DNA of 64,000 bases from an uncultured Gemmatimonadales bacterium (GTDB taxonomy: Bacteria; Gemmatimonadota; Gemmatimonadetes; Gemmatimonadales; GWC2-71-9). The DNA lies in NCBI GenBank assembly GCA_963728705.1, contig CAVSLY010000011.1, positions 101,701-165,700 of the forward strand. Reading direction: 5' to 3'. Under the pieces are notes generated by a model, which was not told where the DNA came from, searched no databases, and saw nothing but the letters and a program-made list of their open reading frames with translations. Positions 31,138 to 61,690 of the stretch are shown piece by piece. Position numbers and translations under genes: made by a program. Within the stretch, counting starts at the first letter, position 1; each line of letters opens with the position of its first letter.

Positions 31138-31850
31138 CGATCCACTCCCGATAGCGCGGCAGGAACGCCTCGAGCGGGCCGGCCTTTGGCTGGTCGCACA
31201 CCCATCGCCCCTCCACCATCACGGCGACCCGCGTGGCCAGCTCCCAGACCTCGGCCAGATGGTGGGTCACGAGCACCAGCCCGAGCCCATCGGCGCGGCG
31301 GGCCTCGAGCATCCCGCGCAGCCGGTCCGCCGAGCCGGCGTCGAGCGCGGTGAAGGGCTCGTCGAGCAGGAGCAGCCGCGGCGCATGCAGCAGGGCGCGG
31401 GCGATCGCGGCGCGCTGGAGCAGCCCGCGGCTCAGCCGCCGCGGCGACTCGTCCGCCCGCTCGGCTGAGTCCCGCCGCCTCGAGCGCCGTCCGGGCGGCG
31501 TCCGCCGGGCGCGCGAGGCCATAGAGGCGCGCGACGAAGATCAGGTTCTCCATCACCGTCAGGTCGTCGTACAGCAGGGATTGGTGCGACAGGAGGCCGA
31601 TCGCGCGACGGGCCTCGGTCGCGTTGCCGGTGAGCGGCCGGCCGAGCACGTGGACCTCGCCCGCGGTCGGGCGCATGAGGCCCGCCAGGATCCGGAGCAG
31701 CGTGCTCTTCCCCGCCCCGTTCGGCCCGGCGACGGCCAGGGCCTCGCCGGGAGACAGGGTCAGGTCGATGTCGTGAAGGACCCGAAGGCGGCCGAAGGAG
31801 CGACGGAGACCACGAGCGGCGAGAAGGGGCTCGCCGTCACGAGACGGCAT
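31130..31850 (-). pseudogene. ccmA: heme exporter ATP-binding protein, one apparent frameshift
   Basis: Walker A GPNGAGKST in ORF 31107..31850. Signature and Walker B (LSRGLLQRAAIARAL..LLLLDEPFTALD) in ORF 31130..31522. Switch near 31462. Confidence 0.8.
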
Positions 31851-32642: not shown

Positions 32643-32783
32643 CCATCCTCCTTCGGCACCGAGCTATCTCACCACCAGCAGGTGAGACCTCTAGTTTTGC
32701 GGCCCCGGATCGCTCCGGGTGTGCTCTATCGAGAGAATCGACGCCTCGCCGCAGGCTACGTTGCGGCTGCGCCCTCGAGAAAG

Positions 32784-32807
32784 GCGAGTCTGGTGCCAAT
32801 GGCACCA
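32784..32807 (-). promoter_or_regulatory. 17-bp perfect palindrome overlapping a sigma54-like -24/-12 motif
   Basis: TGGTGCCA-A-TGGCACCA (32791..32807). On the minus strand this reads TGGCAC-cagac-TCGC (32798..32784), about 140 nt upstream of the STAS ATG. Confidence 0.3.
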
Positions 32808-32923
32808 AGCCAATGTCAGTTGGTCACTTACAGATGGGGCCCAGGACCTGGGTGCGACCGCTTGCGTCGCAGACCGCGAGATTCTACTGCAAAAGCGGCG
32901 AAGTGGTAAGAGCGGCGCGGACG

Positions 32924-36792: not shown

Positions 36793-36793
36793 C

Positions 36794-37228
36794 TCAGCCG
36801 GCCCGCGGCTCCGGCGCCTGTCGCAGTGCCAGGAGGGCCAGAATCAAAATCGACAGGATGATGGCAGCCGAGCCGACGCACCAGCGGCAGATGGCGTGGA
36901 TGACGAACAGCTCGAGGTAGGTGAGATAGAGCGTGAACAGGACCCCGCCGCCGGCAAGCCCCGCGAGGAGCGAGGCCGGCCACCGCTCCCGGGCGAGGGT
37001 GGGCCGGAGCGCGATCAGTCCAACCCCGAACAACAGCGCGTAGCCCACGAGGCCGATGAGGGCGACCTCGACACCCAGGAACCGGCTCCACTCGCTGGTC
37101 TGGACGGTCTCACATCCGCCAGTGCCGCAGGCGAGCGTTCCGATCCGGCCGATCTTGTAGAGGTAGAGATATGCCGACACGAACACGCCCACGAGACTCA
37201 TGAGCGCCGCGCCCATGCGGTAGATCAT
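36794..37228 (-). CDS. vitamin K epoxide reductase (VKOR) family protein
   Basis: 144 aa with 4 TM segments. Loop cysteines CGTGGC and active-site CRWC. Confidence 0.75.
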   Translation of the reverse strand: MIYRMGAALMSLVGVFVSAYLYLYKIGRIGTLACGTGGCETVQTSEWSRFLGVEVALIGLVGYALLFGVGLIALRPTLARERWPASLLAGLAGGGVLFTLYLTYLELFVIHAICRWCVGSAAIILSILILALLALRQAPEPRAG

Positions 37229-40965: not shown

Positions 40966-41292
40966 GTGGACGCCGCATTCAACTCGCACGTGCACGAGCT
41001 CACCGCCATCAGCGGCGCCCGTCTCGCGGACGCCAACGGTCTGTCCGCCATCGTCGTGGCCGCCGCCGGCGCGGTCGGGATGCCGCCCCTCGGACCGCCG
41101 CTCGTGCGCGAGAGTCCGGGCGGGGTGGCGGTGGCGCTGCTCTGCCGCGAGGGCCACATCGTGCTCCACACGATTCCCGACGAGGGGCTCTGCTTCGTAT
41201 CGGTGGTCGCCCGCGCCCCGGTGGACGTCCGGCGGGGCGTGGAGGTGATCAGCCGCGGGCTCGCCAGGGACGGGGGACGGCGGGACCGCTAG
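40966..41292 (+). CDS. S-adenosylmethionine-decarboxylase-related small protein lacking the processing serine
   Basis: Tail of ORF 40288..41292. LLCREGHIVLHTIPDEGLCFVSV aligns by eye to the ESHxxIHTWPE pyruvoyl-forming motif, with Gly in place of Ser. GTG 40966 is a tentative start. Confidence 0.4.
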   Translation: MDAAFNSHVHELTAISGARLADANGLSAIVVAAAGAVGMPPLGPPLVRESPGGVAVALLCREGHIVLHTIPDEGLCFVSVVARAPVDVRRGVEVISRGLARDGGRRDR

Positions 41293-43961
41293 GACTGCAG
41301 CGCCGCGACGGGCGGGTGGGTCGCGCGGCGGCCGCGGACCACCCCCTCGACCCGCCGCTCGGGATCGAGCGAGGCCTGCGCCACGCGCAGCACGTCCTCG
41401 GCGGTGACGGCCCGGAACGCCGCAGCGGGATCTGCGAGTTCCCCGAGCCCGGATCCGGCCACCCACGCCTCGAGGATCTCGTTCGCCACCGCGCTGCCGG
41501 ACTGGCGGCTCACCTCCGCCTGGCCAGCCAGGTAGTTCACCGCCTGCCGCAGCTCGCTCCCACTCACCGGCTCGTGGGTAAACCGCTCCAGCTCGCGCAG
41601 CATCTCCTCGCGTGCCTCGTCCTCGCGCTCGGGTGAGGTGGCGATGTAGGTCACGAGCGCGCCCGCGCGGGCCTTGAGCCAGGCGGACGCCACGACCGTG
41701 TACGCGAGCGACCGCCGGTCACGCAGCGCCTCGAACAGCCGCCCGCCAAGCCCGCTCGCCACGGCGGCCCAGACCTGCACCGCCGCCCGGTCCCGGTGAC
41801 GCCGTGCCACTCCCGGAAACGCCATCGCTATGGCCGCCTGCGCCTTGTCGCGGGAGACGACGCGCGCCGGCGTCTCGCCGCCGGCGCCGGCCAACCAATC
41901 GAGCGCGGGCAGGCCACCGACCGGCGCCCGCGGCTCGGCGCCGGCGAACGCGCCCGCCAGGACCGCCGAGGCTTCGTCGGGGTCCACGTCGCCCACGGCA
42001 ATGACTACCGGACGGACGCCACGCAGCGCGCGCAGGTGCCAGGCCCGCGTGTCGGCGCAGGTGATGGCTGGCAGCGTGTGGGGCAGTCCCGCCACCGGGA
42101 GTCCGTAGCCCTCGTCACCGAAGGCGGCGGCGAACGCGAGCTGGAACGGATAGCGGAACATGTCGTCCGCTACCTGTTGGGCTTCGGCGATCATCAGGCC
42201 GCGCTCGCGCGCCACATCGCGCTCCTCCAGCCGGGGCGAGGTGTGCACCAGGTCCAGCAGCGCGGCGGCGGGCGCCAGGTGCTCCGCCAGCACGGTGGTG
42301 CCGAAGCCGAGCCAGTCGGACGCCGCGATCGGACTCACGGTGCCGCCCAGACGCTCGAAGGCGAAGGCCAGCCCGGCGGCGTCGAGGTCGCCCGCGGCGC
42401 GCACCGCGCTCCGTACGGTGAGCGCGCCGAGTCCTGCCTGCGCCGGCGGGTCGAGCTCCAGCCGCGGTATGTAGATGCCGAGATGCACCAGCGGCACACC
42501 GGGCTTCCGGCGAACCAGCAGGTCGGCACCCGGAAGGCTGGTGTGAACCACGTCCGCTTCGCGCCGGGTGGCCGGTCGGACGGACGCGGAGCGCGGCGGG
42601 GGCGCGGATGCGCCCGGTGCGGGCGCGGGTTGGCGGAGTTCCGTGACGGCGAAGGCGCGAGCCAGAGCGTCGGCGGTGAGCTCGGCGCCCTCATCTTCGG
42701 GAAGGTAGAGCACGCCGGAGACCGAGTCCGGCTGGAGGTAGCGGGCCGCCGCCGCGCGCACGTCCTCGGGTCGCACGGCGGCGATCGCCTCGAACTCGCG
42801 GTCGAGAAAATCGTATCCATCGAGCGCCTCGGCGGCGGCGAGCGCGGAGGCGCGGCCCTCCATCGACTCGAGCCGGCGAGCCCAGCGCGCGCGGAGCAGC
42901 GTGCGCGCGCGCTCGAGCTCGTGGGGCGGGGGCCCGAGCAGCGCCAGCCGGGCCACCGACGTGGCGATCGCGTCCAGCGCCTCGGGCACCCGCTGAGGCG
43001 CGAGCTCGGCGGCAACGCCGAAGAGCCCCAGCTCCGTCGGCGCGTAGTAGTTCGCGGCGATCCAGGTGACGAGCCCCGGCTCCCGCAGTCCGCGGTAGAG
43101 CCAGCTGCCGCGGCCCGAGCCGAGCACCGCGGCGGCCAGGTCCAGCGCCGGCGCGTCGGGCGCGAGCGGCGGGGCCGCGCGCCAGCCGAGCGACAGCTCG
43201 GCCTGGCTCACGTCGCCACGAAGCGTGCGCGCCCGTACCTCGCGACGATCCGTCTCCTCCGGCGAGGGGTCGACCACCACGGAGGCCGCCGGCCATTGGC
43301 CGTAGGCCTCGCGCGCGAGCCCGAGCGCGCGGTCCGGGTCCACCGCGCCGACGATCGCCACGATGGTCCGCTCCGGCACGTAGCGGGACGCGTAGTAGCC
43401 GTGGACGTCGGCGCGGGTGAACCCCGCGAGCTGCGCCTCGTGGCCGATCCGCCAGCGCCGGATCCGGTGGCGGTCGAACATCACCTCGTGGAGCGTCTCG
43501 TACGCCACCGACGACGGCGAATCGAGCTTGCGCTTGGCTTCCTGGATGATGACCTGGAGCTCGCGGGCCAGCTCGCCCTCGTCCAGGACCGAGTGGCGCA
43601 GCGCATCGGCCTGGATGTCGAGCGCTTCGGCGAGACTGGCGGCGGGGAGGACCGTGAAATACGAGGTGTGGTCGTACGTCGTGCTGGCGTTGAGATAGCC
43701 GCCCGCGCTCTTGGTCTCGCGGGCGATCGCGCCCACGCCCCGGCGCGCCGTGCCCTTGAAGAACATGTGCTCCAGCACGTGGGAGATGCCGCTCCAGCGG
43801 TCGGGCTCGTCGAAGAAACCCGCCTTCACGTGCGTCACCACCGCCACGACGGGGGCGGAGCGGTCCTCCTGCACGAGCAGGGTGAGGCCGTTCGGCAGCA
43901 CCTCCCGCCGGACGCCGGCCGTCCAGTGCGGCGGCGGCTGCCCGGGACCGCGCGCCGTCAT
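41289..43961 (-). CDS. tandem M16 (pitrilysin/insulinase-family) zinc peptidase
   Basis: Intact ORF with HVLEHMFFKGT (HxxEH) in the first unit and a second M16-like unit lacking it. Start 43961 lies 4 nt after the TPR gene stop; the alternative start is 44024. Confidence 0.8.
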   Translation of the reverse strand: MTARGPGQPPPHWTAGVRREVLPNGLTLLVQEDRSAPVVAVVTHVKAGFFDEPDRWSGISHVLEHMFFKGTARRGVGAIARETKSAGGYLNASTTYDHTSYFTVLPAASLAEALDIQADALRHSVLDEGELARELQVIIQEAKRKLDSPSSVAYETLHEVMFDRHRIRRWRIGHEAQLAGFTRADVHGYYASRYVPERTIVAIVGAVDPDRALGLAREAYGQWPAASVVVDPSPEETDRREVRARTLRGDVSQAELSLGWRAAPPLAPDAPALDLAAAVLGSGRGSWLYRGLREPGLVTWIAANYYAPTELGLFGVAAELAPQRVPEALDAIATSVARLALLGPPPHELERARTLLRARWARRLESMEGRASALAAAEALDGYDFLDREFEAIAAVRPEDVRAAAARYLQPDSVSGVLYLPEDEGAELTADALARAFAVTELRQPAPAPGASAPPPRSASVRPATRREADVVHTSLPGADLLVRRKPGVPLVHLGIYIPRLELDPPAQAGLGALTVRSAVRAAGDLDAAGLAFAFERLGGTVSPIAASDWLGFGTTVLAEHLAPAAALLDLVHTSPRLEERDVARERGLMIAEAQQVADDMFRYPFQLAFAAAFGDEGYGLPVAGLPHTLPAITCADTRAWHLRALRGVRPVVIAVGDVDPDEASAVLAGAFAGAEPRAPVGGLPALDWLAGAGGETPARVVSRDKAQAAIAMAFPGVARRHRDRAAVQVWAAVASGLGGRLFEALRDRRSLAYTVVASAWLKARAGALVTYIATSPEREDEAREEMLRELERFTHEPVSGSELRQAVNYLAGQAEVSRQSGSAVANEILEAWVAGSGLGELADPAAAFRAVTAEDVLRVAQASLDPERRVEGVVRGRRATHPPVAALQS

Positions 43962-43965
43962 GCCG

Positions 43966-45084
43966 CTACTGCACGATCCGCAGCACGCCCGCTTCGGCGC
44001 TGCCGCGAATGAAGGCCTCCGCATCCGTGGTGGGGATGACGACGCCCGTTTCGGCCTGACCCCGCCGGGCCAGGCTGGCCATGAAATCGGTCAGCGAGCC
44101 GGCGGCCCAGTCGCGGTCGGCCTCTTTCATCTGAAGCAGAATCTCCTCCCAGTTGCCGCGAATGGGCTGGCCGGCCAGCGTGACCACGACATGTGCCTCG
44201 GCGTGCCCCGGCTTCTTCTGCATCGCGTGCAGCTCGCTGAGGAGCGTGCCGAACAGCTCGAGCTGGTGCGGATCGCGGACGCCGCCGTCGGCCTGCTGCG
44301 CCTCGACCTCGGCGAGCAGCATGTCGATCGCATCGGGCTCACCGCCCACTTCGCCCAGTCGGGTCAGCCAGGGAACCAGCTCGGGATCCTCGTCCGGCAG
44401 CCGATAGACCGTCTTCTTGAGCTCGATGTGCCGCCAGATGCCGAGCTCGTCGAAGTGATCTTCAGGCTGGGTGCGCTCGAGCTGATGGAGCGCCGCCTCG
44501 GTCTCGCCGCGGTCGTAGAGCAGATTGGCGAGATAGATTCGCGCCTCGCTGTACGACGCGTCGAGCTCGAGTGCTCGGCGGAGCCAATAGAGCGACCCGG
44601 CGTCGTTCCCCAGCCGGTGCGAGGCGTAGCCGAGGCAGGCGGCCGCGTCGGGCGAGTCGGGATGGGCGGAGGCCGCGAGGTCGAAGAACCGTTGCGCGGG
44701 CGCGATGTGCCCTTCGCGAAACAGCGCGCGACCGACCTGCAGCATGAGCTCGTGATCGTCCTGGAAGCCGAGCTGCAGAATCCGCTCGAACGCGCGCATG
44801 GCACCAGGGCGGTCTCCCAGCTTCAGCAGCGTCTCGCCCAAGCCGGCCAGGCCGTCCTCGTGGTCGGGGTCCAGCCCGAGAGCGTGCTCGAAACTCCGTC
44901 GCGCCCAGGCGTATTCCTCCCGGGCCAGATGGGCATAGGCCATCCCGATGTGGAGCTCGACGGCATGTGGATAGAGGGTGGTGCCTTCCTTGAGGATCAG
45001 CAGCGCTTCATCGTACCGGCCTTCGTTATAGAGTTGATGGGCTTGTTCGTCGAAGTCGTCGGAGCTGAGAAAGGCGTCCGACAT
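43966..45084 (-). CDS. TPR-repeat protein
   Basis: ATG 45084 preceded by GGAGGA. Repeated A-x3-Y/F..A..G..D.A helix pairs in the N-terminal ~230 aa. Confidence 0.65.
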   Translation of the reverse strand: MSDAFLSSDDFDEQAHQLYNEGRYDEALLILKEGTTLYPHAVELHIGMAYAHLAREEYAWARRSFEHALGLDPDHEDGLAGLGETLLKLGDRPGAMRAFERILQLGFQDDHELMLQVGRALFREGHIAPAQRFFDLAASAHPDSPDAAACLGYASHRLGNDAGSLYWLRRALELDASYSEARIYLANLLYDRGETEAALHQLERTQPEDHFDELGIWRHIELKKTVYRLPDEDPELVPWLTRLGEVGGEPDAIDMLLAEVEAQQADGGVRDPHQLELFGTLLSELHAMQKKPGHAEAHVVVTLAGQPIRGNWEEILLQMKEADRDWAAGSLTDFMASLARRGQAETGVVIPTTDAEAFIRGSAEAGVLRIVQ

Positions 45085-49974: not shown

Positions 49975-51447
49975 TTGCCTCATCTTTCCCTCGTGACCTT
50001 CCAACGCAAGCTGCTCTTCGGTTTTTCCCTGATGGTGCTCCCGGTGCTGCTCGTCGGTGCGGAAGCCATCCGCAGCAACGTGCTGGAGCGCCGTGCCCTT
50101 ACGGCGCTGGGTGAGAGCATGGCGCGCACGCGGACTTACGCCGAGCTCGAGACTGCCATGTTCGACCAGACCGAGCTCATCTGGCGCGACCTGAGCGGCC
50201 TCGATCCCACCGCGCGGAAGGAATTCCAGCTCACCGGAGAGGTCGTCGGCTACTGGCAGGACCGCTGGCGCGCCGAGCTCAAGCCGGAGGAGACGACGCT
50301 CGCCGACGGGGTCCAGGGCATTCAACGCCAGATCGTCGCCGTGTCCGAGAGCGTCTTCGCGCTGGAGGACGCCGGACGGCGCGAGGATGCGTACCGCCTC
50401 GCCGAGCGCGAGCTCAGAGGCCGGCTCCAGCCGGCGCTCACGCAGATGAACCGGGAGATCTACCGCCGCGCCCGGGAGTCGAGCGTGCGCGGCGCGTTCG
50501 GCCGGCTGGAAGAGATTCTGGCCGACGAGGGGCGGACGCTCGTCGCCATCATCGCGCTCGCGCTCGTGGCCGGACTGGTGGCGAGCTGGGTCATCTCGCA
50601 AAGCCTGGCGCGTCCGATCAAGCAGCTCACCGAGGCCATGGCCGTCGTTGGCGGAGGCGACCTCGACCACCCGGTCCAGGCCACCTCGCGCGACGAGGTC
50701 GGCGACCTGGCGCGCGCGCTCGGGGTCATGACCGGACAGCTCCGCGCCTCGCGTGAGCAGCTGGTGCAGGCGGAGAAGCTGGCCTCGATCGGCGAGATGT
50801 CGGCCGCGGTGGCCCACGGGCTTCGGAATCCGCTCGCGAGCCTCCGCGCGGCCGCGCAGCTCGTCCGGCGCCATCCCGCGTCACCCGGCGCCACCGAGCA
50901 CCTCGACGCCATCATCGAGGAGGTGGATCGCCTCGACCGTCGCATCAGCCACCTGCTCAGCTTCAGCCGTCCGGCGCCGTTCCATCCGGGCTCCGAGAGC
51001 CTGCCGCGGCTGATCGACGACCTGTTGCCTGCCGTCGCGACGCCGATTCGCGAGCAGCACGTCGAGCTCGAGATGGCGGTGCCCGTCACGCTGCCGGCGG
51101 TGCGGGTGGATCCCATGCAGCTCGAGCAGGCCATCCTGGAGATCGTGTCGAACGCCCTCGACGCCATGCCTGGAGGCGGACGTCTTCGGATCGGGGCCTA
51201 CGTCGCCAATGGCGAGGGGCCGGCCGCCGTCGTCCTCGAGGTGAGCGACACGGGCGGCGGCATCCCCGAACAGGCACTCTCGTCGGTCTGCGAGCCGTTC
51301 TTCACCACCCGGCAGGAGGGCACCGGGCTCGGCCTGGCGATCGCCAAGCGGTACATCGAGCAGAACGGCGGCCGCCTGGAGATCGCGAGCCGTGTGGGCG
51401 AGGGCACGACGGTTCGGGTCCGCCTCCCCACCGAGCGCACCGCGTGA
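49975..51447 (+). CDS. sensor histidine kinase (TM-HAMP-HisKA-HATPase)
   Basis: HAMP (RPIKQLTEAM..GDLD), H-box AAVAHGLRNPL, and G-boxes DTGGGIP and GTGLGLAIAK. Start is TTG 49975 or GTG 49993. Confidence 0.85.
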   Translation: MPHLSLVTFQRKLLFGFSLMVLPVLLVGAEAIRSNVLERRALTALGESMARTRTYAELETAMFDQTELIWRDLSGLDPTARKEFQLTGEVVGYWQDRWRAELKPEETTLADGVQGIQRQIVAVSESVFALEDAGRREDAYRLAERELRGRLQPALTQMNREIYRRARESSVRGAFGRLEEILADEGRTLVAIIALALVAGLVASWVISQSLARPIKQLTEAMAVVGGGDLDHPVQATSRDEVGDLARALGVMTGQLRASREQLVQAEKLASIGEMSAAVAHGLRNPLASLRAAAQLVRRHPASPGATEHLDAIIEEVDRLDRRISHLLSFSRPAPFHPGSESLPRLIDDLLPAVATPIREQHVELEMAVPVTLPAVRVDPMQLEQAILEIVSNALDAMPGGGRLRIGAYVANGEGPAAVVLEVSDTGGGIPEQALSSVCEPFFTTRQEGTGLGLAIAKRYIEQNGGRLEIASRVGEGTTVRVRLPTERTA

Positions 51448-51457
51448 GGCGCACGTC

Positions 51458-52897
51458 GTGAGCGGCTCGACCGTGCTCATCGTCGACGACGAGCGCACGC
51501 TCGCCCGGGCCATCAAGGCGTTCCTGACCGAGTCGGGCTACGAAGCCGAGGTGGCGGGCGACGCGGAGCAGGCGCTCCGGCTGCTCGAGACCATGCGCCC
51601 CGACGTCGTCTTCACCGACGTGCGGCTTCCCGGCATGGACGGCATCGAGCTGCTGCGGCGGATCCGCGAGTTCGACGCCGCCATCCCCGTGATCATCATG
51701 ACCGCGCACGGCACCATCGAGGGCGCGGTCGAGGCCGTGAAGCTGGGCGCGTTCGACTACCTCAAGAAGCCCATCGACCTCGAGGAGCTCAAGCTCCTGG
51801 CCGACCGCGCCCGGGAGCACTCCCAGCTCCGCCAGGAACTCTCCTACTACCGCCGGCGAGACGCGGCGCGCGAGACGCCGCTTGCCGGCGTCATCGGCGA
51901 GTCGCCGTCCATCCGGGAGGTGCTGGACCAGGCGCGCCAGATCGCGGCGCTCGATGAGACGCCGCCGGTCCTCATCATCGGCGAGACCGGCACCGGGAAG
52001 GGCCTCGTCGCGCGCACCATCCACAGCGCGAGTCCGCGCGCGGGCCGGCCCTTCATCGAGGTGAACTGCACGGCGCTCCCGGCCACGCTCATGGAAGCCG
52101 AGCTCTTCGGCCACGAGCGGGGGGCATTCACCGACGCGAAGGAATCGCGCATGGGCCTCTTCGAGGCCGCCGATGGTGGGTTCCTGTTCCTCGACGAGGT
52201 GGGCGATGTCGAGCTCTCGCTCCAGGGCAAGCTGCTCAAGGCGGTCGAGGACCGGACCGTGCGGCGCGTCGGTGGCATCCGCGACCGCCGGATCGACGTG
52301 CGGATCCTGGCCGCTACCAACCGGGATCTCGAACGCGACGCTCAGCGCGAGACCTTTCGCCGGGACCTGTACTTCAGGCTGGCGGTGATCATCCTGCAGC
52401 TACCGCCGCTCCGGGAGCGGGGCAGCGACATCCTGCTCCTGGCCCAGCACTACCTCGAGCGGTTCAATGCCAAGTACGGGAAGGACGTGCGACAGATCGA
52501 CGCGCGCGCCCGGACGCTGCTGGCCGAGTATCCGTGGCCAGGCAACGTGCGCGAGCTGAGCCACGTGATCGAGCGCGCGGTCCTGTGGAGCCGCGGACCG
52601 ATGCTGGACGTCGAGCACCTCTCGCTCGGCACGCCCGCAGGGGCGGGACCGGCGCCAGAACCCCGAGCGGCATCGCCAACGGGGTCGACCGCGTCGCCGG
52701 CTCCGGCTCCAACCGGCGCCGCGAGCGGAGGGTATCCGGTCTCTCCACCGCCCGGCCTGCCGCTCGACCAATGGGAGCGCACGCTCATCGAGCAGGCGCT
52801 TCGGGAGTGCGACGGCAACCAGACCCGTGCCGCCCAACGGCTGGGAATCAGCCGTGACACGCTGCGGTACCGGCTCAAGAAGCATGGGATTCAGTGA
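51458..52897 (+). CDS. sigma54-dependent response regulator (NtrC family)
   Basis: GTG 51458. Receiver (LIVDDE..DVRLPGMDG), AAA+ (GETGTGKGLVAR, ERGAFTDA, FLFLDEV) and a C-terminal Fis-type HTH (NQTRAAQRLGISRDTLRYRLKKHGI). Confidence 0.9.
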   Translation: MSGSTVLIVDDERTLARAIKAFLTESGYEAEVAGDAEQALRLLETMRPDVVFTDVRLPGMDGIELLRRIREFDAAIPVIIMTAHGTIEGAVEAVKLGAFDYLKKPIDLEELKLLADRAREHSQLRQELSYYRRRDAARETPLAGVIGESPSIREVLDQARQIAALDETPPVLIIGETGTGKGLVARTIHSASPRAGRPFIEVNCTALPATLMEAELFGHERGAFTDAKESRMGLFEAADGGFLFLDEVGDVELSLQGKLLKAVEDRTVRRVGGIRDRRIDVRILAATNRDLERDAQRETFRRDLYFRLAVIILQLPPLRERGSDILLLAQHYLERFNAKYGKDVRQIDARARTLLAEYPWPGNVRELSHVIERAVLWSRGPMLDVEHLSLGTPAGAGPAPEPRAASPTGSTASPAPAPTGAASGGYPVSPPPGLPLDQWERTLIEQALRECDGNQTRAAQRLGISRDTLRYRLKKHGIQ

Positions 52898-52923: not shown

Positions 52924-52989
52924 GTCATCCTGAGCGAAGCGAAAGAGCCATGCCTTAGGTCATGGCTCCTTCGCTTCGCTCAGGATGAC
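52924..52989. repeat. palindromic repeat element, copy B (near-perfect 29-bp arms)
   Basis: GTCATCCTGAGCGAAGCGAAAGAGCCATG-ccttaggt-CATGGCTCCTTCGCTTCGCTCAGGATGAC with one arm mismatch. Sits between the convergent NtrC and SGNH genes and probably also acts as a terminator hairpin. Confidence 0.8.
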
Positions 52990-53004
52990 GAGGCGGCTGT
53001 CGTG

Positions 53005-53901
53005 TTAAGGAACGTCCGTCGGACCGTAGTCGCTGTACCGCTCGAGCGCCGCCTGCGCCGCCTCCTGAAGCCGCTGGGCCTTCGTGGGGTCGACCGTCGC
53101 CGGTGCGGGCAGGCCGAGCGGTGAGCGCCCGGAGAGCGCGGCGAAGATCGTGAGCGCCGCCGCGTAGCTGCCGGCCGGGGTGGGATGAAACCCGTCGCCG
53201 CCATACAGCGCGAGCGACGGGTCGGCGCGCCACGCCGCCCGCCAGGATTCTCCTGCCGGCAGGAACCAGCCGGACACGTCTCGCGCGGCGAGCGCGTACG
53301 AGTCCCGCACCCGATCGAACCAGGCGAATCGGGTGAGGTCGGGCCACACCATATACAAGGCGGACCGACCGCCCGCCGCGCGCACCAGCCCGTCGAACTG
53401 CACCACCCAGTGCCGCAGGTTGGTCCGGCTCTCGGGCAACGACGAGGGACCTTGTTGCAGGACCACGGCATCCCAGTGGCCGCTCTGTATCCGGGCCTGG
53501 GCGGAGCCGCCCTTCCAGTGGTCCTCCAGGCTGGCGCCGCCTTGCAGTTCTGCCTGTACGTCCCAGTCGAGCCCTTCGGCCGTGGCCATTGCCAGGACCT
53601 GCGCCGGCAGATCGTTCGCGTCAGTGAGGCTGTTGCCGATGAAGAGCACCCGGGCTCCCGAACCGAGGCCAGATGGATTAGGAATCGGCGGTCCCGGTTT
53701 CGGTGACGGGGGCGGGCCCGGGTCAGGTGGCGGTGGCGGCGGGGCGGGAGGCGGTGGTGGCGCGGGTGGAGCCGGGGGCTCCGGTGGCGGATTGTTTCCC
53801 GTGGGTGGGGTCGTAACGTCGGATGACGAGCCGGCGCAGGACGGCCCGACGGCAAGCGCAAGACACATCGCCAGCACCGCGGCCCGCCAATCATGGAGCA
53901 T
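53005..53901 (-). CDS. SGNH/GDSL-type hydrolase lipoprotein with a proline-rich linker
   Basis: Signal peptide and lipobox-like AVGPSC. Roughly 40-aa run that is mostly Pro. VLFIGNSLT (block I Ser) and GDGFHP (block V). Confidence 0.65.
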   Translation of the reverse strand: MLHDWRAAVLAMCLALAVGPSCAGSSSDVTTPPTGNNPPPEPPAPPAPPPPPAPPPPPPDPGPPPSPKPGPPIPNPSGLGSGARVLFIGNSLTDANDLPAQVLAMATAEGLDWDVQAELQGGASLEDHWKGGSAQARIQSGHWDAVVLQQGPSSLPESRTNLRHWVVQFDGLVRAAGGRSALYMVWPDLTRFAWFDRVRDSYALAARDVSGWFLPAGESWRAAWRADPSLALYGGDGFHPTPAGSYAAALTIFAALSGRSPLGLPAPATVDPTKAQRLQEAAQAALERYSDYGPTDVP

Positions 53902-54015
53902 GAATCGCGTCCTCAGTACCGGCGATGTCGTGGATGATGCCTGCGCGGTCCGTTCGGAGGTGACGCCGATAGTGGCTTTTCCGGCACGCGCCTGTCGCTC
54001 CGCTCACCCGCCAGT

Positions 54016-54034
54016 GGGTGGGATCACCCAATCG
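54016..54034 (+). promoter_or_regulatory. 19-nt motif copy 1 (GGGTG-N4-CACCC-AATCG), UAS-like position
   Basis: GGGTGGGATCACCCAATCG, about 115 bp upstream of the sigma54-type -24 element. 17/19 identical to the copy at 54193. Confidence 0.4.
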
Positions 54035-54138
54035 GGTGCTATGCCCCAACCCTTACGCATCCGAGGTCGTCCGGTGGGAATCGGCGCAAACCGGTCCCGC
54101 ATATATGCTTAGACAACAATCGATCACGCCGATCATTC

Positions 54139-54154
54139 TGGCACACCACCTGCG
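54139..54154 (+). promoter_or_regulatory. sigma54-type -24/-12 promoter upstream of pqqA
   Basis: TGGCAC-accac-CTGCG against the consensus TGGCAC-N5-TTGCW. Lies in an AT-richer intergenic region 94 nt before the pqqA ATG. Confidence 0.45.
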
Positions 54155-54192
54155 TTAAAGCGGGCGTCGTCGGGTCCTCCAACGATCCGACT

Positions 54193-54211
54193 GGGTGGTA
54201 ACACCCAATCG
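54193..54211 (+). promoter_or_regulatory. 19-nt motif copy 2, in the pqqA leader
   Basis: GGGTGGTAACACCCAATCG, between the putative promoter and the SD (GGAGGA at 54235-54240). Could fold as a 5-bp hairpin with a GUAA loop. Confidence 0.4.
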
Positions 54212-54247
54212 TCAGTCCGTTCCACAACCCTCTCGGAGGACGAAAAC

Positions 54248-54322
54248 ATGAAGTGGACCAAGCCCGAGGCCGAGATCGTCGCCGTCACGATGGAAGTCAC
54301 CGCGTACGTCGCGACCCTGTAA
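54248..54322 (+). CDS. pqqA: PQQ precursor peptide (small ORF absent from the ORF track)
   Basis: MKWTKPEAEIVAVTMEVTAYVATL (24 aa) with the conserved E-x3-Y (EVTAY) and an MKW..P N-terminus. Strong SD. Directly upstream of pqqB. Confidence 0.9.
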   Translation: MKWTKPEAEIVAVTMEVTAYVATL

Positions 54323-54336
54323 GGCGAAAGACTGAT

Positions 54337-54372
54337 CTGAGGGGCTCGCGAAAGCGGGCCCCTCAGTCTTTT
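54337..54372 (+). terminator. stem-loop/attenuator between pqqA and pqqB
   Basis: CTGAGGGGCTCGC-GAAA-GCGGGCCCCTCAG (13-bp stem including one G-U pair, GAAA tetraloop) followed by TCTTTTCC. Confidence 0.55.
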
Positions 54373-54399
54373 CCGCCCCCTCCGCCCCCGTCTTTCCCC

Positions 54400-55308
54400 A
54401 TGCATATCGTTCTCCTCGGTACCGCCGCCGGTGGGGGATTCCCCCAATGGAATTGCTGGTGCCTGTCCTGCCGGGTGGCTCGTGAGGACCCGCGGCGCGC
54501 GATCCCGCGGAGCCAGTCGTCCGTCGCCGTGAGCGGCGACGGCGCGCGATGGTTTCTCCTCAATGCATCGCCCGACGTCCATGCGCAGCTCGGCCGCCTC
54601 CACGTGCCGGTGCCCGCCGGAACTCGGCATGTCCCGGTCGAGGGCATCGTCTTGACCGATGCCGAGCTCGACCACACGCTTGGTATCGTGCTCCTGCGCG
54701 AGGCGCGGCGGCTGCAGGTGGCCGCCACCGACGCGGTCCGGCGGGTCATCGAGGACGATTCGCGGCTGCTCCCCGTCACCCGGGCGTTTGCCGACGTCAC
54801 CGTCACCGAGCTCGTGCCCGACCAGCCGCTCGAGCTCTGCTACCGCGACGGAACGCCGAGCGGGCTCCGGGTGACCTGCTTCCCGGTGCCCGCGGGCCCT
54901 CCGCGGTTCGCCCGCGAGGAGCGCCCGGCCCACACCGTGGGGCTCCTGGTGCAGGACGAGCGTACCGGCGGCACCTGCGCCTTCGTCCCCGGCTGCGGCG
55001 ACCTGGACCAGGCCCTGCTCTCACGCCTGGGCCGCGCGGACCTCGTACTGTTCGACGGGACGTTCTGGACCGACGACGAGCTGATCGGACTGGGCATCGG
55101 CGAGCGCACGGCGCGTCAGATGGATCATCTGCCGGTCTCCGGACCCGACGGCAGCCTGGCCCGGCTCGGTCGGCTGCCGAGTCGGCACCGGGTGTACACG
55201 CACATCAACAACACCAATCCCATGTTGCTCGAGGATGCGCCCGAGCGGGCCCTGGTCGAACAGGCCGGTCTCCGGATCGGCGTCGACGGCATGCGATTCA
55301 CCCTCTGA
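54400..55308 (+). CDS. pqqB: PQQ biosynthesis protein B (metallo-beta-lactamase fold)
   Basis: ATG 54400. MHIVLLGTAAGGGFPQWNCWCLSC is characteristic of the PqqB N-terminus. Confidence 0.9.
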   Translation: MHIVLLGTAAGGGFPQWNCWCLSCRVAREDPRRAIPRSQSSVAVSGDGARWFLLNASPDVHAQLGRLHVPVPAGTRHVPVEGIVLTDAELDHTLGIVLLREARRLQVAATDAVRRVIEDDSRLLPVTRAFADVTVTELVPDQPLELCYRDGTPSGLRVTCFPVPAGPPRFAREERPAHTVGLLVQDERTGGTCAFVPGCGDLDQALLSRLGRADLVLFDGTFWTDDELIGLGIGERTARQMDHLPVSGPDGSLARLGRLPSRHRVYTHINNTNPMLLEDAPERALVEQAGLRIGVDGMRFTL

Positions 55309-55317
55309 GGCCCGACC

Positions 55318-56076
55318 ATGACGACCACGCTCGCCGCCTCGCAGCTCGCCACGCCACCTCGGCCACCGATCCCGGTCCTCGAGCGTCCGCTCGCGCCGGC
55401 GGCGCTCGAGGAGGCCCTGCGCGCGTTCCATGGGTCGTACTACGTCCAGCACCCGTTTCACCAGCTCATGTACGAGGGCAAGCTCAGCCAGCGGCAGTTC
55501 CAGGGCTGGGTGACCAATCGCCTCGCCTATCAGCGCGTCGTGCCGCGGAAAGACGCTGCGATCCTGTCCAACTGCCCCGACGCCGACGTGCGGCGTGAGT
55601 GGATCGGCCGCATCATCGACCACGACGGCACCGAGCCGGGCACGGGCGGGATCGAGCTCTGGATCCGGCTCGGCATTGCGCTCGGTGTGCCGCGCGAGGA
55701 GATGGAGGACGAGCGGCACGTGCTGCCGGCGGTGCGGCTCATCTGCGAGTCGTACGTCACGTTCTGCCGGAGCAAGCCGTGGCAGGAGGCCTGCGCGTCG
55801 TCGCTCACCGAGCTGTTCGCGCCCAAGATCCATCAGCAGCGGATCGAGGCGTTCCCCCGGCACTATCCGTGGATTCCGCCCGAGGGACTCGACTACTTCA
55901 AGAGCCGGCTGGTGCAGGCCCCGCGCGACGTGAACCACGGGCTCCGCATCGTGCGGGCCTGGGCCACGACGCCCGAGCGGCAGCAGAAGGTGTTCGAGGC
56001 GTTGGCCTTCAAGCTGGAGATGCTGTGGGCCATGATCGACACCATCCACAATGCCTACCGCGAGGAGCCGGCGTGA
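55318..56076 (+). CDS. pqqC: pyrroloquinoline-quinone synthase
   Basis: 252 aa. YYVQHPFHQLMYEGKLSQRQFQGWVTNR. Position in the operon. Confidence 0.9.
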   Translation: MTTTLAASQLATPPRPPIPVLERPLAPAALEEALRAFHGSYYVQHPFHQLMYEGKLSQRQFQGWVTNRLAYQRVVPRKDAAILSNCPDADVRREWIGRIIDHDGTEPGTGGIELWIRLGIALGVPREEMEDERHVLPAVRLICESYVTFCRSKPWQEACASSLTELFAPKIHQQRIEAFPRHYPWIPPEGLDYFKSRLVQAPRDVNHGLRIVRAWATTPERQQKVFEALAFKLEMLWAMIDTIHNAYREEPA

Positions 56077-56336
56077 CGCTCTCGCCCGACTCGGTGCCGC
56101 GGATCTGGCGGCTGGCCCGGCTGGATTACGACCCGGCCCGGCAGCGGCCCGTGCTGTTGTACCCCGAGGGCGCCGTGCTCCTGAACGACACCGGCCGCGA
56201 GATCCTCGAGCTGGTCGACGGCACTCGCACCGTGGCCGAGATTGCGGGGCTCCTCGGTGCGCGCTACCAGACCGACGTCACCGCCGACGTGACCGACTAC
56301 CTGTCGCGCCTGGCGGAAAGGGAGCTGATCCAATGA
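56073..56336 (+). CDS. pqqD: PQQ biosynthesis peptide chaperone
   Basis: GTG 56073 overlaps the pqqC stop. VLLYPEGAVLLNDTGREILELVDGTRTVAEI. Confidence 0.85.
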   Translation: MTLSPDSVPRIWRLARLDYDPARQRPVLLYPEGAVLLNDTGREILELVDGTRTVAEIAGLLGARYQTDVTADVTDYLSRLAERELIQ

Positions 56337-57418
56337 CGACCGAACGTCCGACCACGCTGCTGGCAGAGCTGACGCACCGCTGTCCGCTCCACTGCCCCTA
56401 TTGCTCCAACCCGCTCGACCTGCTCCGAGCCGAGAGCGAGATCGGCACCGACGACTGGAAACGGGTGTTTACCCAGGCGCGGGAGCTGGGCGTGCTGCAG
56501 CTCGGCCTCTCGGGCGGTGAGCCGCTCATCCGGAAGGACCTGGAGGCGCTCGCCACGCACGCCCGGAGCCTGGGCCTCTACACTACGCTCGTGACCTCGG
56601 GCCTCGGCCTCACCCGCAAGCGTGCCGAGGCGCTCCGGACGGCCGGCCTCGAGCACATCCAGGTGTCGGTGCAGGACGCGGATGCCGAGACGGCGGAGCG
56701 GATCGCGGGCGTGAGCTCGGTCAAGCAGAAGCAGGCGGCCATCGCGCTGGTCAAGGAGCTGGGCTTCGCCTTCTCGATCAACGTGGTGCTCCACCGCGCC
56801 AACCTCGACCGCATCGGCGAGATCATCGACCTCGCCGCCGGCTGGGGCGCCGACCGGCTCGAGCTCGCCAACACGCAGTACTATGGCTGGGGGCTCAAGA
56901 ACCGGGCGACGCTCATGCCCAGCCGCGAGCAGGTGCTGACGGCCCGGGAGATCGCCCAGGACCGGATGCTGCGCTACAAGGGGCAGATGCAGATCACCTT
57001 CGTGCTCCCCGATTACTTCGAGGAGCTGCCCAAGGCGTGCTACGGCGGGTGGGGACGGTACTACATCGTGGTAGCGCCCGACGGCAAGGCGCTGCCCTGC
57101 CATGGCGCGTACGCGATCCCGTCGCTCGACCTGCCGAGCGTGCAGGACCACTCCATCCACTGGATCTGGCACGAGTCGTCCGCGTTCGAGGCCTTCCGCG
57201 GCGACGCGTGGATGAAGGAGCCGTGCCGGACCTGCCCGCGGAAAGCCGTGGACTTCGGCGGCTGCCGCTGCCAGGCACTCGCGCTGACGGGCGACGCGGC
57301 CAATGCCGACCCGGTCTGCACATTGAGCCCGCACCGTCACCTCATCGACGAGGCGCTGCACGAGCATGCCGGCGCCGACGCCTACGTCTATCGCGACTTT
57401 GCCGTCGAGCCGCGTTGA
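56333..57418 (+). CDS. pqqE: PQQ biosynthesis radical SAM protein
   Basis: ATG 56333 (ATGA overlap). CPLHCPYC radical-SAM cluster motif. C-terminal SPASM cysteines (CRTCPRKAVDFGGCRCQA). Confidence 0.9.
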   Translation: MTTERPTTLLAELTHRCPLHCPYCSNPLDLLRAESEIGTDDWKRVFTQARELGVLQLGLSGGEPLIRKDLEALATHARSLGLYTTLVTSGLGLTRKRAEALRTAGLEHIQVSVQDADAETAERIAGVSSVKQKQAAIALVKELGFAFSINVVLHRANLDRIGEIIDLAAGWGADRLELANTQYYGWGLKNRATLMPSREQVLTAREIAQDRMLRYKGQMQITFVLPDYFEELPKACYGGWGRYYIVVAPDGKALPCHGAYAIPSLDLPSVQDHSIHWIWHESSAFEAFRGDAWMKEPCRTCPRKAVDFGGCRCQALALTGDAANADPVCTLSPHRHLIDEALHEHAGADAYVYRDFAVEPR

Positions 57419-58338
57419 GCGCGTCGCCGGCGATCGTCACCGCGGGGCTCGGGCGCGACTATGACAGTGTCCGGGCCCTCGACGCGTTGAGCCTGGAGGT
57501 TCCGCTGGGCGCGCTGGTCGGCCTGCTGGGTCCCAATGGCGCGGGCAAGACGACTGCGATGCTGCTGCTCGCCACGCTGCTGGCCCCCTCCCGCGGCGAG
57601 GCCACGATCTTCGGCCACGACGTGGTCCGCGAGCGCGGCGCCGTCCGGCGCCGGCTGGGTCTCGTGTTCCAGGAGACCAGCATCGACGGTCTCCTCACGG
57701 TCGAGGAGAACCTCCGCTTTGCCGGCCGCCTCGCCGGCCTGGGCGGGGGCGAGCTCCGCGCCGCAGTCGCCGCGGCGATCGACCGTGCCGGACTCCGGGC
57801 GCTCGCGGCGCAGCCGGCGCGGCAGCTCTCCGGCGGCTGGCGGCGGCTGGTGGACATCGCCCGCGCCACGCTGCACCGGCCGGACCTCCTCGTCCTGGAC
57901 GAGCCCACGGTCGGCCTCGACCCCGAGCATCGCGAGCTGATCTGGACCATCCTCGGCGCGGAGCGGCGCGAGCGCGGCACGACGGTCCTCTTCTCCACGC
58001 ACTATCTCGCCGAGGCGGAGCCCGCCGACCGGGTGGTCCTGCTCTCACGCGGCCGCGCGGTGGCCGACGGAACGCCGGCCGCGCTCAGGGCGGCCGTCGG
58101 CGTCGAGGTCGCCGAGATCGAGGGGCCCGGGGCGGAACGCCTGGCGCGGGCGATCCGCGGGCTGGGTGCCACGGCCACCGTGCTCCAGACCGACCGCGGT
58201 TTCCGGGTGGGCATTGTCGGGGAGCGGGAGTCGGTCATGGAGCTGGCCACCAGCGCCCCTGGGATCGAGCGGCTCGCCCTTCGGCCGGCGACGCTCGAGG
58301 ATGCGTACTTCGCGCACACACGCGAGGGCGCGGCATGA
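57415..58338 (+). CDS. ABC transporter ATP-binding protein (ABC-2/DrrA-like)
   Basis: TTG 57415 overlaps the pqqE stop (TTGA); start tentative. Walker A GPNGAGKTT, signature LSGGWRRLVDIARA, Walker B LLVLDEPTVGLD. Confidence 0.8.
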   Translation: MSASPAIVTAGLGRDYDSVRALDALSLEVPLGALVGLLGPNGAGKTTAMLLLATLLAPSRGEATIFGHDVVRERGAVRRRLGLVFQETSIDGLLTVEENLRFAGRLAGLGGGELRAAVAAAIDRAGLRALAAQPARQLSGGWRRLVDIARATLHRPDLLVLDEPTVGLDPEHRELIWTILGAERRERGTTVLFSTHYLAEAEPADRVVLLSRGRAVADGTPAALRAAVGVEVAEIEGPGAERLARAIRGLGATATVLQTDRGFRVGIVGERESVMELATSAPGIERLALRPATLEDAYFAHTREGAA

Positions 58339-59124
58339 GCGCGTGGAGCGCGGTCGTCGGCATCGTCGCGCGCGACCTCGCCCGCACGACGCGACAGACC
58401 AGCCGGCTCCTGGGCGGGCTCGCGCGGCCATTCATGTGGCTGCTGCTGGTCGGGAGCGGCTACAACGCCATCGCCAGGCTCGAGGGCGGGCTGCCGTATC
58501 AGGCGTTCGTGTTTCCCGGAATCGTGGTGATGGCGGCGCTCTTCGGGGCGATGCTCACCGCCATCGGAACCGTGTACGACCGCGAGTTCGGCATGCTGCG
58601 CCTGATGCTCGCGAGTCCCGCCGGCGTGCCGGCGGTGCTGACGGGGCGGGCCATCGCGGCCGCGCTGGTCGGCGTGCTCCAGGGTGGGATCGTGCTGGCC
58701 TGCGCGCCGCTGGTGCTGCCGGTGTCGCCGGGCGAACGTCGGTGCCGGGGCCGGCGCGCTGGTGCTCGCGGCCGGCGTGAGCGCCCTGCTGGGCCTGCTG
58801 GTGGCCGCGCGGCTCCGATCGGTCGAGAACTTCGCGGGGGTCATCAACGTGGTGCTGTTTCCGCTGCTGTTCGTGAGCGGCGCGCTGTACCCCACGGCCG
58901 GGATGCCGCCGGTGTTGCGCCTGCTCGCGCGGGCCAATCCCGTCACCTACCAGGTCGACCTGATGCGGCACGCGTTCGGGCAGCCCACCGAGTTCGCTGC
59001 GGGGACGGATGTGCTGGTGCTCGCGGGCGCGGCCGTGGTGGCGTTCGGCCTGACGGCGCTGCTGTTCGATCCGGAGCAGCGGTTCGTGAGGACGAGACGG
59101 GGAGGCGAGCGATCGTCATCCTGA
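58335..59124 (+). pseudogene. ABC-2-type transporter permease, one apparent frameshift
   Basis: ATG 58335 overlaps the ATPase stop (ATGA). TM-rich N-terminal half in ORF 58335..59480 and C-terminal half in ORF 58684..59124 (SVENFAGVINVVLFPLLFVSGALYP). Switch near 58735. The stop codon lies inside repeat copy C. Confidence 0.7.
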
Positions 59125-59200
59125 GCGGAGCGAAGGATCGGGTCGGTGGTGCGAGTGAGCGCCGAGCCTCACTTACATGCGTTGGCCGATCCAGGATGAC
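59115..59200. repeat. palindromic repeat element, copy C (right arm carries a 12-nt deletion)
   Basis: GTCATCCTGAGCGGAGCGAAGGATCGG...GGCCGATCC^AGGATGAC. The first 27 nt are identical to copy D, the core is similar, and the orientation is the same as D. Confidence 0.75.
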
Positions 59201-59967
59201 CCACATGGTCCAGCACGACATCCTGCTCCAGCCGCGACCGCAACGGGGCGCGCAACGGTCCACCCGCCGGGACCGACGTCTCGACCACGATGTGCCGCGT
59301 CCGCCGCAGGAGCCCCGTCGCCGCATCCCAATCCACCTGCCCCTCCTCGATCGTCTCTTGCCGCGCCGCGATGGCCGTCGTATCGCCGCGCACGGTGGCG
59401 CGACCTGGCCTCGCTGCGGGAACGGAGCGCGAGCCGGCGCACCGCCCGTCCACCCGCGAGGCTGTCGGGCAGCCGGGTGAGCTCCAGCCCCCTGCCATCG
59501 CGCCATTGCTCCCCAACCGTGAGCGCCGAGGGAGGCAGCGGCGGGAGCAGATCGTCCAGGGCGGCGCCGAGGTCGGACACCTCCGCCACCTCATCGGGCA
59601 CGAACGGTCGGGCGTCGGCCGTGTAGCGGCCCGCAGACGAAAGCGTCCCGCGGTAGCGACCGCCGAGCAGGCCGTCCGTGTCGGGCGCGAGCACCCCCTC
59701 CGGGCTCGTCCGCGAGAGCGCGAGCGAGTCGTACCACGCCTCGACGGAGATTCCCGCCGGTGCGGACCGTCCGCGCACGCGCCAGAGGCCGTCGCGCGTC
59801 AGCGTCTCCCGCCGGCGCCGGAGGCCGGTCTCAGCCTCGAGCACCGCACGCGAGTGCTCATGGAGCGAGACGCAGCGAAATTGCTCGGGGGTATAACGGA
59901 ATTCGGCCGGCGCTTGCGCGGCGCCGGGACTCGTTCCCACGCAGAGGGCGCACGCGACTAGTGTCAT
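59169..59967 (-). pseudogene. hypothetical protein bracketed by repeat copies C and D, one apparent frameshift
   Basis: ORF 59173..59967 (N-terminal part; its ATG lies inside repeat D; partial signal-peptide-like LVACALCVGTSPGAAQA) continues in ORF 59169..59594. Switch near 59430-59470. No family recognised. Confidence 0.4.
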
Positions 59968-60060
59968 CCTGAGCGGAGCGAAGGATCGGGCCGGTGGTGC
60001 GTGTGAGGCTAGTGCGTCACTCGCATGCGTCAGCCGATCCTTCGCTCCGCTCAGGATGAC
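59963..60060. repeat. palindromic repeat element, copy D (full length, 98 bp)
   Basis: GTCATCCTGAGCGGAGCGAAGGATCGG-core-CAGCCGATCCTTCGCTCCGCTCAGGATGAC. It exactly fills the gap between the pruA stop (60061) and the hypothetical gene start. Confidence 0.8.

Positions 60061-61690
<1,630 letters not shown>

Follow-up and report, generated by a model that had tools for sequence, protein, structure and literature searches.

We describe here a putative export system for pyrroloquinoline quinone (PQQ) that is encoded inside a pqq operon of an uncultured Gemmatimonadales bacterium. The window, by which we mean the whole stretch of DNA that was analysed, comprises 64,000 nucleotides (nt) of contig CAVSLY010000011.1 (GenBank assembly GCA_963728705.1, positions 101,701 to 165,700), and its + strand carries, at 54.1-59.1 kb, a complete pqq operon together with two transporter genes, an ABC ATPase and an ABC-2 permease. 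The genes of the operon are the following.

54248..54322, + strand: pqqA, precursor peptide of 24 amino acids, MKWTKPEAEIVAVTMEVTAYVATL, with the E-x3-Y motif EVTAY, as read from the sequence
54400..55308, + strand: pqqB (TIGR02108, 350.7 bits; cut-off 245)
55318..56076, + strand: pqqC (TIGR02111, 306.6 bits; cut-off 240)
56073..56336, + strand: pqqD (TIGR03859, 78.9 bits; cut-off 46), its GTG start overlapping the pqqC stop (GTGA)
56333..57418, + strand: pqqE, radical-SAM/SPASM enzyme (TIGR02109, 517.2 bits; cut-off 381)
57415..58338, + strand: DrrA-like ABC ATPase of 307 amino acids, its TTG start overlapping the TGA of pqqE (TTGA, 57415-57418)
58335..59124, + strand: ABC-2 permease, its ATG start overlapping the TGA of the ATPase gene (ATGA, 58335-58338); 262 amino acids after removal of one extra base

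PqqB, PqqC, PqqD and PqqE all exceed the equivalog cut-offs of NCBIfam (release 20, from which all family cut-offs given here were taken) and PqqA has the E-x3-Y motif, so that the locus can be assigned as pqqABCDE. A GGAGG box precedes pqqA, near-identical small pqqA open reading frames (ORFs) are located 5' of pqqB in almost all related loci, and the plot of GC content at third codon positions (GC3 phase) is consistent with the + strand frames of the pqq, ATPase and permease genes. An earlier reading of this DNA, made from the letters only and called below the sequence-only reading, proposed the two transporter proteins as a candidate PQQ exporter and described the pqqA-E genes as a chain of overlaps that continues into the transporter pair. 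The chain holds for pqqC/pqqD and for pqqD/pqqE, where the ATG start of pqqE shares 4 nt with the pqqD stop (ATGA), but pqqA and pqqB are separated by a gap of 77 nt and pqqB and pqqC by one of 9 nt. Its continuation is correct, and both the TTG start of the ATPase on the pqqE stop and the ATG start of the permease on the ATPase stop are seen in the sequence. Had an independent promoter or terminator separated pqqE from the ATPase, this would, according to the same reading, have refuted the proposal; no promoter- or terminator-like site was detected at this junction, where the genes overlap and leave no space for one, and none was detected at the ATPase-permease junction either.

The same arrangement is met in many other genomes. 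We scanned one genome per GTDB species with a composite DNA pattern, checked on known loci, which joins the PqqE motif GGCRCQA to the Walker A motif GPNGAGKT over a distance of 225-285 nt, and this gave at least 119 loci. The ATPase gene follows pqqE in all 119 loci listed (119/119) and the permease comes next in 104 of the 119, while the remaining 15 end before that point. A start codon shares 4 nt with the pqqE stop, again in 104/119 of the loci listed, counted by a script that took the start codon nearest to the pqqE stop; because an in-frame NTG is found at the exact register in 104 listed species loci, the overlap is not a matter of chance. Judged by their record titles, the listed loci come from Gemmatimonadota (82), Actinomycetota (10, from Solirubrobacterales, Gaiellales and Thermoleophilia), Acidobacteriota (7, Vicinamibacteria), Gammaproteobacteria (7, Steroidobacteraceae and others), Myxococcota/Polyangia (5) and records titled 'proteobacterium' (8), and a separate homologue search added a Burkholderiales metagenome-assembled genome (MAG) with the same order of pqqE, ATPase and permease. 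The lack of any phylogenetic linkage of the pair to pqq genes, the other counter-evidence named by the sequence-only reading, is thus not what we observe, the linkage being kept in at least 119 species loci of five phyla.

The relatives of the window ATPase tell the same. Its best 120 homologues are 77-96% identical to it, and in five of five examined contigs with ATPases of 79-96% identity pqqE is placed immediately 5' with the same overlaps. The longer contigs (loci L001, L002 and L003 of our collection) show pqqB-E, then the ATPase, then the permease, and the permease is intact wherever a contig spans the whole gene (L001-L003 and L005). More distant ATPases are linked to pqqE likewise, including one of 61% identity (P0122, locus L006) and one of 47% identity of the Solirubrobacterales type (P0216, locus L008). 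As a background, an unselective metagenome scan found pqqE 5' of 2 of 80 DrrA-like ATPases of 29-45% identity among the matches listed. The nearest relatives that are not linked to pqqE lie in a lanthipeptide cluster (L128), in a ctaA-ctaB-sco1 cluster (L129) and in an unrelated context (L007).

Not only are the genes adjacent, they also have diverged together. Pairwise identities of PqqE and of the nucleotide-binding domain (NBD) of the ATPase correlate with r = 0.95 (3655 pairs from 86 loci with complete sequences), and with r = 0.56 among the pairs whose PqqE identity is below 65%. Both proteins give one and the same grouping, in which a long type of Gemmatimonadota goes with Acidobacteriota and a short type of Gemmatimonadota is nearest to Actinomycetota, then come Gammaproteobacteria and then the Myxococcota type. 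From this co-divergence we infer that the pair travelled and diverged with the operon. We compared the history of the NBDs by a neighbour-joining tree and by bit scores against 81 non-linked ATPases; the Gemmatimonadota long type and Acidobacteriota are clearly one clade, the Gemmatimonadota short type, Actinomycetota and Gammaproteobacteria are loosely related, and by tree and scores the Myxococcota type looks nearer to pairs without a pqq linkage. Whether there was one origin or several recruitments, either course would imply a selection that keeps an ABC-2 pump coupled to PqqE.

Two variants of the operon were noticed along the way. A second Gemmatimonadota type (L009, L014, L018, L034 and ~15 more loci) has a PqqE ~55% identical to that of the window, a PqqA that ends in ...EVGAYAGNA, and a short ATPase of ~250 amino acids without the C-terminal domain. 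In the pqq-linked permease of Solirubrobacterales, a single protein of ~560 amino acids, two ABC-2 domains are fused in tandem (L106, 4611-6299; also L019 and L016).

What follows the permease may point to the cargo. In four gammaproteobacterial MAGs the gene directly 3' of the permease encodes a TonB-dependent receptor, orthologous to PqqU, at these positions of the respective loci.

L060, 3820-5802: PqqU orthologue
L063, 3417-5399: PqqU orthologue
L086, 5-1255: PqqU orthologue
L089, 1057-3044: PqqU orthologue

The four receptors are 33-41% identical to E. coli PqqU (those of L060, L086 and L089 as found by tblastn), and that of L063 aligns with 39% identity over PqqU residues 28-697 of 700 (E 2e-162). 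The published filter for PqqU combines an aromatic residue at position 99 (Y, F or W) with R304 and R365 (PMC12124388). In the L063 receptor, in which the residues were checked, the PQQ-binding residues F99, K274, R304 and R365 are kept, so that the assignment is based on full-length similarity and on the L063 residues at 99, 304 and 365. Synteny of pqqU with the pqq operon was described as rare, with four Burkholderiales genomes (PMC12124388). At the other loci the 3' genes are unrelated to each other and encode an M48 peptidase, PanB or an M19 dipeptidase, or are convergent.

The ATPase has all its motifs intact, namely Walker A (GPNGAGKT), Q-loop (FQE), signature (LSGGW), Walker B (LLVLDEP) and H-loop (STHY), and matches Pfam ABC_tran with 105 bits. 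Its best NCBIfam match is DrrA (TIGR01188, 224.7 bits, cut-off of 312.45 not reached) and the second is PQQ_ABC_ATP (TIGR03864, 211.2 bits, cut-off of 302.25 not reached). The two halves of the permease each match ABC2_membrane (PF01061, 45.3 and 57 bits). The intact orthologous permeases have 261-273 amino acids; that of L001 reaches 153.2 bits for DrrB (TIGR01247, cut-off 223.05), and the permeases of L001 and L006 reach 144.4 and 149.1 bits for PedC (TIGR03861, cut-off 241.35), below the cut-off in each case. Among solved structures the closest sequences are, for the ATPase, the first NBDs of ABCA7, ABCA4 and ABCA1 and the entry 4yer, and for the permease the ABC-2 'transport permease protein' 8tsh_C and ABCG proteins. 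No binding-protein gene adjoins the pair in L001-L003, L005, L006, L211 and 15 diverse loci, and a separate ABC2_membrane permease gene adjoins the ATPase gene, as is expected of an ABC-2 exporter. By its sequence the pair is predicted to be of the type V exporter fold, and is assigned to a DrrAB-like ABC-2 system outside every curated subfamily, since both genes score below the DrrAB and PedBC cut-offs.

The sequence-only reading was right about the two genes and their families at 57415-59124, but it did not notice that the permease at 58335-59124 (790 nt) is not a single ORF. Its N-terminal half lies in the frame of 58335 and matches positions 1-117 of the DrrB/PedC profiles, and its C-terminal half lies in the frame that ends at 59124 and matches positions 133-236. 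The cause is one base.

58733..58733, + strand: 1-nt insertion, the C in CCGGGCGAAC (CTCGG-GAAC in orthologues), which breaks the permease frame

Deleting C58733 restores a permease of 262 amino acids with about six hydrophobic segments in the hydropathy plot. The base is missing from the aligned intact orthologues of L001, L002 and L005. One could take the insertion, which scrambles the C-terminal half, for the mark of a genuine pseudogene and of a system inactive in this organism, but we consider this very improbable. The C-terminal half retains the GC3 coding signature, and the intact L001 permease aligns by tblastn with 86-92% identity both before and after the shift, leaving ~17 residues at the shift site unaligned. 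The base is also absent from a near-identical MAG locus (L096, a Microflora Danica bin), which has its own, different 1-nt insertions and deletions nearby, and at least four more genes of the window are split by single-base frameshifts when compared by tblastn with L001 proteins. Since L096 has no such base and other window genes are frameshifted as well, the shift is almost certainly an assembly or sequencing error. The window looks like an unpolished long-read MAG prone to such indels, and for this reason readings of it at the level of ORFs call for care.

The split genes lie at 7940-8534 (-), 31193-31838 (-), 59202-59844 (-) and 60064-61690 (-), in addition to the permease at 58733; they are a hypothetical gene (59202-59844), an aldehyde dehydrogenase (60064-61690) and two further ABC ATPases. 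Two ORFs for Kup-type potassium transporters are also present, at 32694-33971 (-) and 34861-36843 (-), of which the former covers the C-terminal part of the family only and is possibly another casualty of a frameshift.

PQQ is made in the cytoplasm and works outside, and a transport role that was once proposed for PqqB has since been dropped. We propose that the pair is a dedicated exporter of finished PQQ across the cytoplasmic membrane, and would put the probability of this at roughly one half (about 0.5). Such an exporter would be a binding-protein-independent ABC-2 system of two ATPase and two six-helix permease subunits, translationally coupled to PqqE and made from the same transcript as pqqA-E, and PQQ formed by PqqC in the cytoplasm would pass through it to the compartment where quinoproteins are loaded. 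The direction of transport is deduced from the ABC-2 family and from the lack of a binding protein, and PQQ as the cargo from the membership in the operon and from the PqqU neighbourhood. Besides double-membraned phyla, Actinomycetota, which are usually single-membraned, are among the carriers, and this fits a step at the cytoplasmic membrane. Where PqqU follows the permease, the two could form an export-and-recapture loop for PQQ. As a precedent, DrrAB-like pairs are also found within clusters that make a product, such as the lanthipeptide cluster of L128 and the ctaA-ctaB-sco1 cluster of L129.

The candidate proposed by the sequence-only reading therefore gains support from the linkage in at least 119 loci, the co-divergence, the PqqU neighbours and the lack of an intervening promoter or terminator. 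Its statement that no dedicated PQQ exporter has been established also agrees with the literature, which still treats the exporter as unknown (PMC7391723; PMC12124388), the latter paper citing a list of candidate PQQ transporters (its reference 15). On a larger scale, we may suggest, with a confidence slightly short of even, that pqqABCDE with the ATPase and the permease is an alternative and widespread type of pqq operon having its own inner-membrane PQQ exporter, and that this type spread, probably in the form of the complete operon, among Gemmatimonadota, Acidobacteriota, Actinomycetota, Proteobacteria and Myxococcota of soils.

A number of points weigh against the proposed export of PQQ by this pair. 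All carriers that we found are MAGs or metagenome contigs, and no cultured carrier is present among the best 120 homologues of each of three linked ATPases. The permease is frameshifted in the assembly of the window itself. We found no permease residues specific to the pqq-linked set, for instance a cationic pocket for the tricarboxylate PQQ, and the conserved positions of the permease are nearly all generic for ABC-2 proteins and occur in outgroups too. The NBD of the Myxococcota type scores higher against non-linked pairs than against the other linked groups, and by their sequences the linked ATPases are not clearly a monophyletic group. To our knowledge, the pqq operons of the classical, well-studied producers Klebsiella, Acinetobacter, Gluconobacter, Pseudomonas and Methylorubrum have no such pair. 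E. coli that carries foreign pqq genes forms holo-quinoprotein and releases PQQ. From these two points it follows that such a pump cannot be a universal requirement. That the cargo would be PQQ rather than another molecule related to the pathway is, moreover, a reading of the gene context.

The last point leads to the alternative that the pump exports some other product of the pathway, such as trimmed pieces of PqqA, some reactive intermediate or a quinone that has been damaged, and works for disposal of by-products or for self-protection. PQQ derives from a ribosomal peptide, pumps of this sort belong to many clusters for peptides that are ribosomally synthesised and modified after translation (RiPPs), a DrrAB-like pair with 43% identity is found in the lanthipeptide cluster L128, and the operon linkage as such is equally compatible with the export of PQQ or of another product. 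Nevertheless the pqqU gene, found beside that of the permease at four loci, speaks for PQQ itself; any peptide left over can be broken down in the cytoplasm, where PqqB and PqqC also consume the intermediates, and we regard this alternative as unlikely. One can also think of the pair as a machine of the CcmAB kind, an ABC system that was once thought to export haem and instead drives the release of holo-CcmE. It would then use ATP for handing PQQ over to a periplasmic carrier or apo-quinoprotein, or for maturation of quinoproteins. The tandem permease of L106 does have a weak match to Pfam CcmB and a related pair is located in the cluster for assembly of the haem-A/copper cytochrome oxidase (L129), but no partner carrier gene is conserved beside the pair in the loci inspected and the idea is one of analogy, which makes it distinctly improbable in our opinion.

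Much the same low probability is given to a generic DrrAB-type efflux pump for drugs or lipids, which would be inherited with the operon and have no function in PQQ metabolism. The family is very large (568,020 library representatives at E <= 0.001, a search dominated by long proteins with two or more matching stretches that left a handful of usable single-domain relatives), ABC-2 pairs occur in many contexts and neither gene reaches a family cut-off. Against this stand the 4-nt coupling to pqqE in 104 of the 119 listed species loci from five phyla and the co-divergence, a coupling and a parallel history that are hard to explain without selection, and also the rarity of pqqE beside DrrA-like ATPases in general (just 2/80 among the matches listed). 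Still less probable to us is an importer similar to PedBC/LutEF that would bring in a lanthanide or another factor for PQQ enzymes. In its favour, the PQQ-related families TIGR03864 and TIGR03861 are the best or second-best NCBIfam matches of the two proteins, and lanthanide-dependent growth requires PedA1A2BC (PMC6839425). The scores nevertheless remain low (211 bits against 302 for the ATPase, 144-149 against 241 for the intact permeases), neither a PedA1 binding-protein gene nor one for a PedA2 beta-propeller was seen beside the pair in the neighbours and ORFs scanned, and the pair is tied to biosynthesis genes and not to dehydrogenase genes; ten large ORFs of the window and the gene tables of L001-L003 contained no PQQ dehydrogenase.

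The genes and sites upstream of the operon suggest how the proposed exporter would be expressed together with the pathway.

49993..51438, + strand: HAMP/HisKA sensor kinase (Pfam HAMP, HisKA, HATPase_c)
51458..52891, + strand: NtrC-type sigma-54-dependent response regulator (Pfam Response_reg, Sigma54_activat, HTH_8)
54139..54153, + strand: sigma-54-type -24/-12 box TGGCACaccacCTGC, ~95 nt before pqqA, as read from the sequence
54337..54366, + strand: very stable hairpin between pqqA and pqqB with a T-run behind it, of the attenuator or transcript-stabiliser type

The kinase is 89% identical and syntenic to the one upstream of pqq in L001 and is present in L002 and L003, and the NtrC-type activator is kept upstream of pqq in all three. 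Of 50 related loci, 12 show the same strict -24/-12 pattern at the corresponding place, and no sigma-70-like promoter was found in 53800-60100. The hairpin is the sole terminator-like site in that same region, and the segment 54320-54400, in which it is contained, folds with -39.7 kcal/mol (z = -4.9 against shuffles). As judged from gene order and domains, the kinase and the NtrC-type activator probably regulate the pqq operon, and the box suggests a control of PQQ synthesis by sigma-54 in these Gemmatimonadales. One sigma-54 transcript would then cover pqqA-E and the pump, the hairpin after pqqA would result in an excess of message for PqqA, and translational coupling would ensure that the products of the genes further downstream, the pump among them, are made.

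Several other features of the vicinity deserve a record. Between the sigma-54 activator and pqqA there is an ORF of 304 amino acids (52980-53894, -), which includes a proline-rich region and matches nothing in Pfam; L001-L003 have no such ORF in the corresponding gap. The window also encodes, ~10 kb upstream of pqqA, a double M16 peptidase of 933 amino acids (41292-44090, -), which may be a PqqF/G-type protease for PqqA processing. L001, too, has an M16 peptidase gene, ~6 kb before pqqB, at the edge of the locus. The end of the operon is marked by a repeat.

59116..59141, + strand: first copy of a 26-nt repeat, which contributes the permease stop codon and lies at the operon end; the next gene is convergent, on the opposite strand

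This repeat, TCATCCTGAGCGGAGCGAAGGATCGG, has three exact copies in the window, at 59116-59141 (+), 59964-59989 (+) and 60034-60059 (-), while no such set of copies is expected by chance. The last two copies form a perfect palindrome between convergent genes, and the repeat looks like a REP-like (repetitive extragenic palindromic) element. A terminator after the permease stop was considered and rejected, the local fold being no more stable than those of shuffled sequences.

A pump coupled to PqqE in at least 119 species gives a concrete protein for the long-open question of how PQQ crosses the membrane. If our proposal is true, the PQQ pathway map would be completed, it would be easier to explain how abundant uncultured soil phyla provide for their many quinoproteins, and pqq would join the RiPP-like clusters that have an ABC-2 exporter of their own; possibly, the pair would also become a tool for higher PQQ yields in production strains. 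A pump inside a biosynthetic operon is unlikely to astonish specialists, yet it makes the question directly testable. Full-text literature searches directed at a PQQ exporter or at ABC genes of pqq operons revealed no paper on this arrangement, though earlier pqq surveys may mention it, and a broader search led only to the literature on the lanthanide transporter PedA1A2BC. What is new is the conserved and translationally coupled place of an ABC-2 pair in the pqq operons of many uncultured soil lineages, and the proteins themselves are ordinary members of a very large family.

Compared with known systems, the pair is closest to DrrAB (TIGR01188/TIGR01247), the NCBIfam family that its ATPase and the intact permease of L001 both match best, and with which it shares a soluble ATPase, a six-helix ABC2_membrane permease and the lack of a binding protein. 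It differs from DrrAB by scores below the cut-offs, by its place in a cofactor operon instead of an antibiotic cluster, and by a cargo that is deduced from the gene context. The second-best family, PedB/PedC (LutE/LutF in Methylorubrum), also belongs to the ABC-2 superfamily and is tied to PQQ-dependent metabolism, but PedA1A2BC is described as an importer (PMC6839425), and our pair stays below its cut-off, has no PedA1 or PedA2 and stands beside biosynthesis genes rather than dehydrogenase genes. The pairs of L128 (6001-7774, after lanB/lanC in a lanthipeptide cluster) and L129 (6001-7814, between the haem A/O synthesis genes ctaA/ctaB and sco1, in a cluster for cytochrome oxidase) resemble it in having ATPases of 41-43% identity and a DrrAB-like pair placed after biosynthetic genes, although they serve other pathways and do not adjoin pqq genes. 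For the same missing step MexAM1_META1p2359 of Methylorubrum extorquens was put forward, as a suggestion only (PMC7391723); like our pair it has no binding protein, but instead of being an ABC-2 pair it is an unrelated fusion of an ATPase and a membrane domain, encoded outside the pqq operon. PqqU (YncD), finally, handles PQQ as well and has its orthologue directly after the permease in the four gammaproteobacterial loci, while being a TonB-dependent importer of the outer membrane that is not homologous to the pair.

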